NCBI GenBank assembly: GCA_963821555.1 | Contig: CAWGEM010000017.1 | Location: 79,873 to 143,872 of the forward strand | Reading direction: 5' to 3' | DNA length: 64,000 bases | Source: an uncultured Alphaproteobacteria bacterium | GTDB lineage: Bacteria; Pseudomonadota; Alphaproteobacteria; Rhizobiales; Xanthobacteraceae | Shown: positions 33,821-37,500 of the stretch, piece by piece | Layout: every line of letters begins with the position of its first letter | How positions within the stretch are numbered: the stretch's first letter is position 1 | Notes under the pieces: generated by a model | What the model saw: only the letters and a program-made list of their open reading frames with translations | The model's database searches: none | What the model was told of the DNA's origin: nothing | Made by a program: the position numbers and the translations under genes

Positions 33821-34498
33821 CTACCCTGCGCGAACTTTGCCGCAGGTGTCGCATTTTGTGCCTGCACCAAATGGTCGGAGCGTTGCATTACCGCAAGTGC
33901 AGAAGTCGCCAGTATATTGCGCGCAGCGTGCGCGAAACTCGCACCGACGCTTTTCTTCATTGGCAGCAGCCACGCGATCCTCTGCAATGTCTGGTGGGAT
34001 GTTGCACGCTTGCGCAATCTCCTTGGCGCTTTCGTACAATTCTAGTACGCGGGATGTCAGCAGGAAATAAGAGGCGAAAGCGTTTGCCTGCCATTCCCCT
34101 CGCTCTTCCTTCTGCACGAATTTGATCTGCGCGGTTTCATCGTCCGAAAACGGTTGGGCATAGTGGTCGTGTAGAACTAGATGTCCAATTTCGTGCGCCA
34201 CGATACGTCGGGCTCCTGGCTCACCTAGATTTGCTTCGTCCCATACCTGCGGATGAATGTGCAGCGTTGGCGGGTTGTGAGTTACGTAAGCAAGAGGTTC
34301 AACCCCATCGGGCACGTCAAATTTGATATCAAGCACGCCCTTGTTCAGCTTCGCAAGAATGCCCGGCAGGATTTTTTCAACGAAGACCACGATGTTGAAG
34401 AAGGCGTCGTTTTCATTGCCGGCCTTACGCCGACAATCCAGCGCGATTGACTCAATGCTCTCCTCGCGCCGGAATCGAACTTTGTGATCGCGAAGCAT
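33821..34498 (-). CDS. ImmA/IrrE family (Peptidase_M78/DUF955) metallo-endopeptidase with NrdJ-like C-terminal Cys tail
   Basis: [10 protein letters not shown] (HEXXH), [13 protein letters not shown]-terminus [26 protein letters not shown]; more AT-rich than its neighbours. Confidence 0.88.
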
Positions 34499-34510
34499 GA
34501 CTAGCAATTC

Positions 34511-37500
34511 CTACGAACACCCCGTCGTGCTGCCGCACGTGTCGCACTTCAGGCACGTGCCGTTGCGCACCAGCGTGAAGTTCCCGCATTCGCCCACATC
34601 TCGCCCTCGTAGCCCTTGGCGCGCGCTTCGGCCGCTTCTGCGCAGCGGCCTTGCGTCGGGCGCTGGGCGCCTGCTCGGGCGAGCTGCTTCCAGCGCCTGC
34701 GCGGGCGAGAGCTTCGCCTCGGGCTCGGCCTTGAGCGCGGTCGCGCCGGCCGAGTGCAGCGCGGTGACGTTGCCGCGCCGCCTGTCCGCCCGGCACCTCC
34801 GTCGGTGCCGCGGGCGACGGCGCGCGCCGCCGCGAGATCACACCGAGCTTGTCGGTGCGCGAGCGGGTCAGGCCCTTCGAGACATAGCGCGAGGCGCCGG
34901 GCGCGGGCTTGCCTTCCTCGACGCCCTTGCCGAGCGCGTCGAAGCCGCCCTCGGTCGGGTCGACGTGGGCGAGGTCGAAGCGCTCCATGTAGGAGATCGC
35001 GAGCTCGCGGAACACGTAGTCGAGGATCGAGGTCGCGTACTTGATCGAGTCGTTGCCCTGCACCGGGCCCTGCGGCTCGAAGCGGGTGAAGGTGAAGGCG
35101 TCGACATATTCCTCGAGCGGCACGCCGTATTGCAGGCCGAGCGAGATCGCGATCGCGAAGTTGTTCAGCAGCGAGCGGAGCGCCGCGCCCTCCTTGTGCA
35201 TGTCGATGAAGATTTCGCCGAGCCGGCCGTCCTCGTATTCGCCGGTGCGCAGATAGACCTTGTGGCCGCCGACCACGGCCTTCTGCGTGTAGCCCTTGCG
35301 GCGGTCGGGCAGCTGCTCGCGCTCGCGCAGCACGGTGATGCGCTCGACGATCTTCTCCACCACGCGCTCGGCCGCGACCGCCGCGCGCGCGGCCTGCGGC
35401 TTCTCGATGAAGGCCGCGACTGCGTCGTCGCGCGTCGTCCTCGTCCTCCTCGTCGGCGATGAGCTGGCTCTGCAGCGGCTGGCAGAGCTTGGAGCCGTCG
35501 CGGTAGAGCGCGTTGGCCTTCAGCGCGAGCTTCCAGGACAGCAGATACGCCGCCTTGCAGTCCTCGACCGTGGCGTCGTTCGGCATGTTGATGGTCTTGG
35601 AGATCGCGCCCGAGATGAACGGCTGCGCCGCCGCCATCATGCGGATGTGGCTCTCGACCGAGAGGTAGCGCTTGCCGATCTTGCCGCACGGGTTGGCGCA
35701 GTCGAACACCGGCATAGTGCTCGGGCTTCAGGTGCGGCGCGCCCTCGACCGTCATCGCGCCGCAGACGTGGACGTTGGCGGCCTCGATCTCGCGCTTGGT
35801 GAAGCCCAGGTGCGCCAGCAGGTCGAAGCGTCGGCGAGGCGATCGATCTCGGCCGGCACGTCGAGCGGTCGCGCAGCAGGTCCTCGCCCAGCGTCCACTT
35901 GTTGAAGGCGAACTTGATGTCGAAGGCGGTCGGCAGCGCCTTCTCGACCTTCTCGATCGCCTCCGGCGTGAAGCCCTTGGCCTTGCAGCGTGGCGTGGTT
36001 GATGCCGGGCGCCTGGCCGAGCGTGCCGTGGCCGACCGCGTAGGCCTCGATCTCGGCGATCTGCGCTCTCGCTGTAGCCGAGCACGCGCAGCGCCTCCGG
36101 CACCGCGCGGTTGATGATCTTGAAGTAGCCGCCGCCGGCGAGCTTCTTGAACTTCACCAGCGCGAAGTCGGGCTCGATGCCGGTGGTGTCGCAGTCCATG
36201 ACGAGGCCGATCGTGCCGGTCGGCGCGATCACGGTCGCCTGCGCGTTGCGGTAGCCGTGCTCCTCGCCGAGCGCCAGCGCCTTGTCCCAGGCGCGCTTGG
36301 CGTGCTCGACCAGCCGCCTTGTCGCGGGCAGGCGGCGTGGTCGAGCCGCACCGGCGGCGGTCGCGACCTTCTCGTAGCCGGTCTTCTCGCCGTAGGCGGC
36401 GCGGCGGTGGTTGCGGATCACGCGCAGCATGTGCTCGCGGTTCTTCTCGTAGCCCGGGAACGGCGCCAAGCTCCTTCGCCATCTCGGCCGAGGTGGCGTA
36501 GCTGATGCCGGTCATGATCGCGGTGAGCGCGCCGCCGATCGCGCGCGCGGCATCGCGAGTCGTAGCCGATGCCGGACGACATCAGCAGGCCGCCGATGTT
36601 GGCGTAGCCGAGGCCGAGCGTGCGGTACTCGTAGGAGAGCTGCGCGATTTCCTTCGACGGGAACTGCGCCATCAGCACCGAGATTTCGAGCACGATGGTC
36701 CACAGCCGCACCGCGTGCTCGTAGCCCTCGACGTCGAACTGTCGCGGTCTGCTCGTCGCGGAACGCGAGCAGGTTCAGCGACGCCAGATTGCAGGCCGTG
36801 TCGTCGAGGAACATGTACTCCGAGCACGGGTTCGATGCGCGGATCGGGCCCGACGCCGGGCAGGTGTGCCAGTCGTTGACGGTGGTGTGGAACTGCAGGC
36901 CGGGATCGGCGCAGGCCCAGGCGGCGTGGCCGATCTTCTCCCACAGCTCGCGCGCCTTGACGGTCTTGGCGACCTTGCCGGGCTTGGTGCGCCAGGTCAG
37001 GTCCCAGTCGCCGTCGGCCTCGACCGCCTTGAGGAACTCGTCGGTGACGCGCACCGAGTTGTTCGAGTTCTGGCCGGAGACGGTGAGATAGGCCTCGCTG
37101 TCCCAGTCGGTGTCGTAGATCGGGAAGTCGATGTCGGTGTAGCCCTGCGCGCGCGAACTGGATGACGCGCTGGATGTAGTTGTCGGCGACGTGGCTCTTG
37201 CGCGCGAGCTTGATCTCGCGCTTGAGCGCCGGGTTCTTCTCGGGCTCGAAGCAGTCGTCGCCCGAGCCCTCGCAGTTGACGCAGGCCTTCAGGATCGGCG
37301 CGCAGGTGCTTCTGGTTGATCTTGGAGCCGGTGACGAGCGCCGCGACCTTCTGCTCCTCGCTGCACCTTCCAGTCGATGAACTGCTCGATGTCGGGATGG
37401 TCGGTGTCGACGATCACCATCTTCGCGGCGCGGCGCGTGGTGCCGCCCGACTTGATCGCGCCCGCGGCGCGGTCGCCGATCTTGAGGAAGCTCATCAGGC

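Follow-up and report, generated by a model that had tools for sequence, protein, structure and literature searches.

In a stretch of 64,000 nucleotides (the window) from contig CAWGEM010000017.1 of an uncultured alphaproteobacterium of the Xanthobacteraceae (GenBank assembly GCA_963821555.1), a gene for a small metallopeptidase lies directly behind nrdJ, the gene of a class II ribonucleotide reductase (RNR), and ends in a zinc ribbon that derives from the C-terminal zinc finger of NrdJ. The reading preferred here, held with somewhat better than even confidence, is that of a zinc protease of the CapP/IrrE kind with an NrdJ-finger tail of ~32 residues, carried by a recombinase-free cassette that inserts at nrdJ and having a predicted role in defence.

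The locus and its protein

The features concerned all lie on the minus strand. nrdJ, encoding a class II RNR with a TSCPD/cysteine-rich domain, occupies 34511..38258 (stop codon at 34513-34511). Its working 3' end (34511..34611), which specifies a six-cysteine zinc finger, is native-like, with a GC content at third codon positions (GC3) of 0.82, and has a 1-nt gap near 34594. A 12-nt spacer (34499..34510) separates the nrdJ stop from the ATG (at 34498) of an intact open reading frame (ORF; 33821..34498, 225 aa) for an M78 (ImmA/IrrE/CapP-like) metallopeptidase, laid out as a peptidase domain, a helix-turn-helix (HTH)-like region, a long helix and a C-terminal zinc ribbon. The HEXXH motif (34181..34195, reading HEIGH; H102, E103 and H106), the third zinc ligand (E135, 34094-34096) and a match to Pfam Peptidase_M78 (PF06114; E 1.3e-7, 31.9 bits against a curated cut-off of 22) mark the protein as a putative M78 peptidase, for which proteolysis is the predicted activity. 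The last part of the gene (33821..33916, GC3 0.50) is an aged copy of the nrdJ 3' end that the protease reading frame translates as its four-cysteine ribbon; the first cysteine pair of this ribbon is one residue shorter than the NrdJ spacing, and both of the proposed redox cysteines are absent. GC content is 0.54 (GC3 0.56) in the protease gene and ~65% in the window, and GC3 is 0.96 in an intact stretch of nrdJ. An earlier note on this DNA, made from its sequence, had described the position and strand of the ATG 12 nt past the nrdJ stop, the HEXXH metallopeptidase of ImmA/IrrE kind and the sequences of the two tails; all of these hold.

The predicted model (pLDDT 92.9) comprises the peptidase domain, an HTH-like bundle, a long helix (residues 169-193) and the small ribbon. 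The nearest folds are those of CapP, PrpR and IrrE/PprI, with CapP (7T5T) the best match in the PDB (profile E 1.1e-11; fold E 5.4e-4), and the HEXXH motif and third ligand align to the CapP active site (residues as given in the accessible part of 10.1101/2022.04.27.489752). The C-terminal GAF domain of CapP is not present in the model, its place being taken by helix 169-193 and the ribbon, and there is no cysteine at the CapP switch position. (That cysteine occurs in only 33% of CapP proteins, according to the available text of 10.1101/2022.04.27.489752 and 10.64898/2026.05.16.725639). No solved structure of the NrdJ C-terminal region was found.

The protease family and its tail

A word search yielded 44 proteins including the query, 39 of which were made into a profile (A1) that was run against representatives of clusters at 50% identity; at E<=1e-30 it recovers 184 such clusters. 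All 39 match Peptidase_M78, and H102, E103, H106 and E135 are invariant in their alignment. Of 190 proteins collected, the 158 with at least 200 aa served for tail counts: HEXXH is present in every one, and the four-cysteine ribbon in 149 (117 with the exact NrdJ spacing), so that the cysteines are kept in homologues, a point on which the earlier note had staked its claim.

Tail identity to NrdJ ranges from 30/33 down to 5/33. Tails with at least 25 matches in 33 are called fresh here; 86 of 156 have decayed to 16 or fewer. The tails of the family drift lineage by lineage while those of NrdJ are nearly invariant, although 50 of the 117 exact-spacing tails end in register with NrdJ. Decayed tails nevertheless remain of NrdJ type: a profile built from 48 degenerate family tails only still ranks the NrdJ tail of the window's genome first, at 21.3 bits, among 110,115 six-frame ORFs. 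The best unrelated match scores 14.1 bits in a genome holding 207 generic CxxC...CxxC motifs, and mere likeness to generic ribbons, which the earlier note had named as what would undo its proposal of copying from NrdJ, is rejected. Selection on the tail, also raised there, is purifying at the level of protein: in 12 pairs, tail pN is 0.17-0.49 against a near-saturated pS of 0.63-1.00, with pN similar to that of the body in most. As pN lies well below pS, the ribbon is being maintained as a protein domain and is more than a scar left in the DNA.

Widespread in soil alphaproteobacteria as a family, the protease gene is patchy in its distribution. At E<=1e-10 the A1 profile matches 255 of 301 genomes of the window's taxonomic family, nearly all through the NrdJ tail; strong matches to the protease body (E<1e-45) occur in only 7 of the 301, the window's genome included, and of 400 genomes from the order three have matches at ~1e-40 or better. 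Among the named hosts are Bradyrhizobium, Rhodopseudomonas, Methylorubrum, Bosea, Methylocystis, Devosia, Bauldia and Lichenihabitans. An origin in phages or plasmids was considered and rejected: viral contigs gave distant M78 matches only (37 loci, all partial), phage records gave 8 matches, none with more than 80% coverage, and plasmids gave none. A search for longer fused forms (423-2000 aa) found none at E<=1e-15, which is weak evidence. One protein, P0061 (291 aa), apparently has two successive ribbons, the first degenerate and the second closer to NrdJ. More distant M78 subfamilies, ending in or containing NrdJ-spaced ribbons, stand behind nrdJ in L088, L091, L093, L099 and L299 (loci are given as L numbers). 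Zinc ribbons of other types are found on M78 proteins in Bacillota, which suggests a generic role for the ribbon.

The site behind nrdJ

Linkage was tabulated, as the earlier note had proposed, over 36 distinct loci with a body score of at least 100 bits, the window included. The protease gene follows nrdJ in 33 of them, in many genera: within ~40 bp of the stop in 31, and at ~430-450 bp in two. No nrdJ is visible in L014, L017 and L162, the last of which has little upstream DNA. Because 31 loci share the close arrangement, a chimeric junction in the window, about which the earlier note had worried, is unlikely. (In L017, at 4226-6432, the family member lies behind an HNH nuclease gene and has a degenerate ribbon).

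DNA past the nrdJ stop differs among the relatives inspected, and no homologous downstream flank was found after the distal copy of the tail in the relatives tested, except for repeat and insertion sequence (IS) pieces. The site also receives other cargo. In 35 of 79 control loci the next 700 bp after the nrdJ stop have a GC content below 0.55. In a PADLOC scan (threshold E<=1e-5) of 41 of the 111 candidate ORFs from 69 control loci, long ORFs being favoured, a match lies within 1.5 kb of the stop in 17 of the 69; these include Thoeris ThsB, CBASS E1-E2, SIR2, AbiH, OLD/PARIS-type ATPases, SngC and several PDC candidates. Tail-less XRE-M78 pairs also occupy the site (an XRE HTH gene stands between nrdJ and the peptidase in L038, L051 and L089), and the ribbon-bearing distant M78 of L093 precedes a CBASS cyclase.

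Many further low-GC ORFs of 260-830 aa, having neither a Pfam nor a PADLOC match, lie in the first 1.5 kb past the nrdJ stop in L180-L252; those of L190, L196, L211, L214 and L234, among others, are candidate new defence genes. Second M78 genes are stacked behind the first at L001:6935-7972, L094:1396-2496 and L004:6821-8096. The one in L001 is a 345-aa form with an extra C-terminal domain that is also found in L094, and L004 has an HTH + M78 pair.

Behind the family gene, the neighbouring genes vary and are often housekeeping genes. Among 139 downstream ORFs at 33 loci there is no integrase and a single HTH gene, which is paired with its own second M78 gene. The family thus has no adjacent XRE-type HTH substrate gene, and in the window the upstream gene is nrdJ. 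Repeats resembling the alphaproteobacterial LexA box were found in the nrdJ end of none of 25 family and none of 92 control loci.

Origin and renewal of the tail

Compared as DNA, the two tails of the window give a local score of 62, inside the range of 1000 shuffles (mean 43.4, sd 5.3, maximum 64), which rejects a fresh DNA duplication in this locus. The statement of the earlier note that the match is not one thus stands as regards the age of the window's copy; it does not stand as regards origin, for across the family the tail duplicates the nrdJ 3' end as DNA, with up to 78 of 81 nt identical. The protease tail derives from the NrdJ tail and is repeatedly renewed across the family. When 156 protease bodies are placed on a tree without their tails, the 19 near-exact tails require 19 changes (shuffled labels: mean 18.1, minimum 15), a count on the upper side because cluster representatives hide close sisters. 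The bodies of these 19 proteins share a median identity of 31%, and monophyly of the fresh tails is rejected (p-AU 1.2e-5) in a set of 36 rows chosen from the tree (the 19 and their 17 nearest neighbours). Excess of tail GC3 over body GC3 rises with NrdJ likeness (rho 0.51, p 0.027, n=19). In L163, where the host's NrdJ tail is of a different type, the protease tail shares features of that type.

Copying from the adjacent working end was tried as a general rule and rejected: that end ranks first of 137 in just two loci, L011 and L018, and in several it comes close to last. Repeat lengths vary from ~80 to more than 170 nt and may run past the stop codon, and many repeats start near -100 nt. No remote copy of the tail was found in five genomes searched or in that of the window.

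Apparently displaced ends of nrdJ

GC3 of the last 68 nrdJ codons was compared with that of the core, a drop being a difference of 0.2 or more; the test covered family loci with sufficient in-frame core (five duplicate loci were set aside, and the window is among those short of core) and controls with a core GC3 of at least 0.75. The end drops in 13 of 21 family loci, against none of 81 loci without M78 and none of 14 that have M78 genes of other kinds. The Mann-Whitney p is 2.6e-8; this and the other p values overstate the case, because the genomes are related and kin are not independent.

In several loci the working end is foreign and the former gene end is found behind it. L015 (Methylorubrum) has an out-of-frame copy 23 nt after the protease gene that is nearer the tails of relatives than is the working end in 11 of 12 comparisons, the single exception being itself a cassette locus. 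In L271 an AT-rich working end (GC3 0.42) is followed by a frameshifted protease gene ending in frame in a native-like tail (GC3 0.88), which is nearer relatives in nine of ten comparisons, with one tie. Both are Methylobacteriaceae loci whose downstream copy looks more native than the working end. L150 has a displaced copy with the linker type native to Methylobacteriaceae; the working ends in L015, L150 and L271 have a different type in common. Out-of-frame tail copies are present in L006, L015, L018 and L150, an orphan nrdJ end stands behind a tail-less M78 gene in L027, and in L159 the repeat extends beyond the stop codon. Displacement is not limited to the protease, since degenerate nrdJ-tail copies flank small cargo that includes no M78 gene in L100 (+185..272 and +878..1014 after the nrdJ stop) and L180 (+630..710); the cargo of L100 looks like a small, unannotated toxin-antitoxin pair.

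Proposed mechanism of insertion

Insertion is probably, and with good confidence, the work of host homologous recombination, by single crossover of a circle or by double crossover. The cassette would consist of a foreign nrdJ 3' end and the protease gene (with its tail copy) and would carry no recombinase. On entry it would recombine once in nrdJ, ~200-300 nt ahead of the stop, and a second time in the tail, which would thus act as the right-hand homology arm; alternatively, a circle formed between two tail repeats would enter by a single crossover. Since sequence past the nrdJ stop differs among relatives, it is the tail that would matter for insertion. The recipient would keep a working enzyme. 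Its native end would come to lie after the protease gene, often joined to it in frame as a fresh tail, when the crossover falls in the tail, and left as an orphan otherwise. Between transfers the tail would decay under selection for the zinc ribbon and its ligands only. The shapes of the L159 and L150 repeats are compatible with a circular intermediate.

A number of observations weigh against this account, or against its extension to defence. Eight of the 21 family loci have no GC3 drop. The window itself has a native-like working end and shows no old end downstream of a foreign one: its nrdJ 3' region is 81-88% identical to those of 11 genus relatives, and GC3 stays at 0.76-0.82. In L004 it is the working end, and not the aged tail, that is nearer relatives in 14 of 14 comparisons. 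Neither a circle nor a transfer event nor a strain with a matched empty site was observed. The Bacillota proteins allow that an older ribbon may have been present and later overwritten by the NrdJ tail. The count of defence genes behind nrdJ stands without a background of random loci and covers 41 of 111 candidate ORFs, and the PADLOC capP match of the protease (E 1e-9) spans the HEXXH region only.

Predicted function and alternatives

As to function, the order of probability is most likely a stand-alone peptidase, then an antirepressor acting in trans, a guard or docking mimic of NrdJ, and a redox sensor. The first of these, an anti-phage or DNA-damage peptidase presumably co-transcribed with nrdJ, is a tentative prediction that falls a little short of an even chance. 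No terminator-like site was found on the minus strand between nrdJ and the protease gene (34499..34510), which makes read-through likely, and a predicted peptidase on the nrdJ transcript would be induced when demand for dNTPs rises. The ribbon would then stand in for the GAF domain as a generic module for binding a ligand or partner, and the tail is likely retained as an ordinary zinc ribbon that probably serves against phages, not as a sensor of redox state.

It is less probable, though a real possibility, that the protease is an antirepressor activated by single-stranded DNA (ssDNA) or RecA that has lost its own XRE partner and cleaves repressors elsewhere (in defence operons, prophages or gene transfer agents). 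CapP and IrrE/PprI, the closest structures, the XRE HTH genes lying ahead of tail-less M78 genes at the same site (L038, L051, L089) and the position of the L093 protein ahead of a CBASS cyclase speak for such a role. On the other hand, two such HTH proteins have no homologue in the window's genome (67% complete), the downstream genes are variable and often housekeeping, and the GAF domain that provides the ssDNA groove of CapP is absent.

Alternatively the ribbon might dock at the site of the NrdJ finger, or bind a phage factor aimed at the finger, and the protease might cleave NrdJ or another essential target and starve the phage of dNTPs, with recombination updating the decoys. Linkage to nrdJ in 33 of 36 loci fits this, as do the lack of a linked repressor partner, the apparent defence hotspot at the nrdJ end, purifying selection on the tail, the tails still in register with the NrdJ end and electron transfer by the finger, which is possible between subunits (accessible part of PMC5704485). 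Insertion alone accounts for the linkage, however, and the decay of 86 of 156 tails in lineage-specific ways, next to near-invariant NrdJ tails, argues against strict mimicry; moreover, a truncated enzyme was not reactivated by a separately expressed cysteine-rich domain (same source and part). The idea is unlikely on balance. So, to the same degree, is its fullest form, a one-gene, recombinase-free homing defence cassette with a landing pad that doubles as a domain of its protein, which would swap the last ~70 residues of NrdJ for those of its own allele, capture the evicted native finger as a current decoy or docking module, ride the nrdJ transcript and guard or cleave RNR during phage infection.

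With regard to the manner of insertion, the locus might instead be the scar of a site-specific integrative element whose integrase targeted nrdJ and which restored the gene end, everything else having been deleted save the protease gene and the displaced end. The classic attL/attR pattern is just this combination of foreign working end and native distal copy; moreover, many repeats start near -100 nt, and ImmA genes are typical of such elements. Nevertheless, neither a linked integrase (none among 139 neighbouring ORFs) nor a fixed att site was found, repeat length varies and may pass the stop, no remote tail copy turned up in five genomes searched or in that of the window, and viral contigs, phages and plasmids hold no close member; such an origin is improbable.

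A redox sensor, whose tail cysteines would report thiol or zinc state or take electrons from the reductant of NrdJ and so switch the protease, is the least probable reading: zinc ribbons can serve as redox switches and 14 of the 117 exact-spacing tails keep both proposed redox cysteines, but it is only 14, which argues against a shuttle, taken singly, one of the two positions survives in 19 and the other in 25, for the most part in fresh copies, and the protein of the window has neither. The earlier note's suggestion of a redox sensor or thioredoxin mimic is further weakened by the NrdJd enzyme tested in PMC5704485, which, in the part of that paper available, had no interaction with thioredoxins or glutaredoxins.

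Comparison with known systems

The protease shares with CapP/CapH (PDB 7T5T), IrrE(PprI)/DdrO and ImmA/ImmR the HEXXH...E zinc peptidase followed by an HTH-like region, as well as defence surroundings. It differs from CapP in having a long helix and an NrdJ-derived zinc ribbon in place of the GAF domain, and from CapP/CapH and IrrE/DdrO in that it has no adjacent HTH substrate and sits directly behind the gene of an essential enzyme. It is thus an M78 peptidase but not half of a CapP/CapH pair.

In NrdJd the tail forms a zinc finger, for which four zinc ligands and, distinct from these, a redox pair have been proposed (PMC5704485, accessible part); the finger is also described in PMC9669993, the available text of which does not mention capture by a protease. 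Spacing and motif are the same in the finger of the class II RNR cysteine-rich domain and in the protease tail, and some members carry exact six-cysteine copies. The protease tail, in contrast, is usually without the redox pair, and the TSCPD/IscU-like domain is not included.

C-terminal displacement in rhs genes, in which an incoming homologous piece is proposed to provide a new 3' end and to shunt the old end downstream with no dedicated recombinase (PMC2935791, accessible part), resembles the events at nrdJ in its low-GC incoming DNA and variable-length repeats. At nrdJ, unlike at rhs, the gene that is hit is essential and metabolic, the replacement end is an equivalent allele and brings no new function, and the end pushed out turns into a domain of the cargo protein. 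Members of the rhs class have an rhs core and non-homologous toxin tips with immunity genes; here the target is nrdJ and the new end is homologous, so the locus works alike and is not a member of the class.

Hotspots free of mobile genetic elements (MGE) (PMC5635113, accessible part) likewise have variable low-GC defence cargo beside a core gene and no mobility genes, and nrdJ is not one of them either. At nrdJ, unlike in those hotspots, a single gene end would supply both homology arms, which would make a conserved second flank unnecessary. Defence hotspots are reportedly renewed by double recombination in flanking core genes. In the literature covered, which did not extend to subscription journals or supplements, no description was found of nrdJ together with ImmA/IrrE, of nrdJ as an integration site, genomic island or defence hotspot, or of M78 with a zinc ribbon.

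Other features of the window

A promoter-like site upstream of nrdJ (38613..38640, minus strand) overlaps a motif found repeatedly in the upstream regions of related nrdJ genes, several of which have it, and resembles an NrdR box; nrdR was not found in the genome (67% complete). The window nrdJ falls into 13 tblastn pieces in shifting frames, reflecting numerous 1-nt indels that are most likely long-read or assembly errors. The deletion near 34594 that the earlier note had corrected is seen against five of five aligned genus relatives, and contigs of related strains have the extra base. Between 34500 and 39300, 1-nt indels are dense in nrdJ and apparently also in an upstream membrane-channel-like gene, while the protease ORF is intact; this density is likely local long-read error. 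Pieces of the protease gene with 0-1 differences are present in four of four soil DNA runs, one of them covering body, tail and stop, and no contig among those listed from these runs bridges nrdJ and the protease gene. Four RNA runs contained nothing but nrdJ tails from relatives and a repeat; protease sequence was absent from them, and they carry no weight as evidence. Short palindromic REP-like repeats lie downstream of the protease gene at 33180-33290 and 33660-33790, with 13 and 7 BLAST matches in the genome, respectively.

Significance

The cassette of protease and nrdJ end provides a stand-alone CapP-like protease, makes repeated capture of a domain visible through fresh, decaying and orphan copies, and takes C-terminal displacement beyond polymorphic toxins, to a housekeeping gene that is essential. 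The nrdJ 3' end emerges as a hotspot of defence genes in the Hyphomicrobiales, with many unannotated low-GC genes. The arrangement further suggests a route by which a gene without a recombinase could spread across genera that share no downstream DNA. If the ribbon does guard NrdJ, phage defence would be tied to the re-reduction of class II RNR, a step that is poorly understood.

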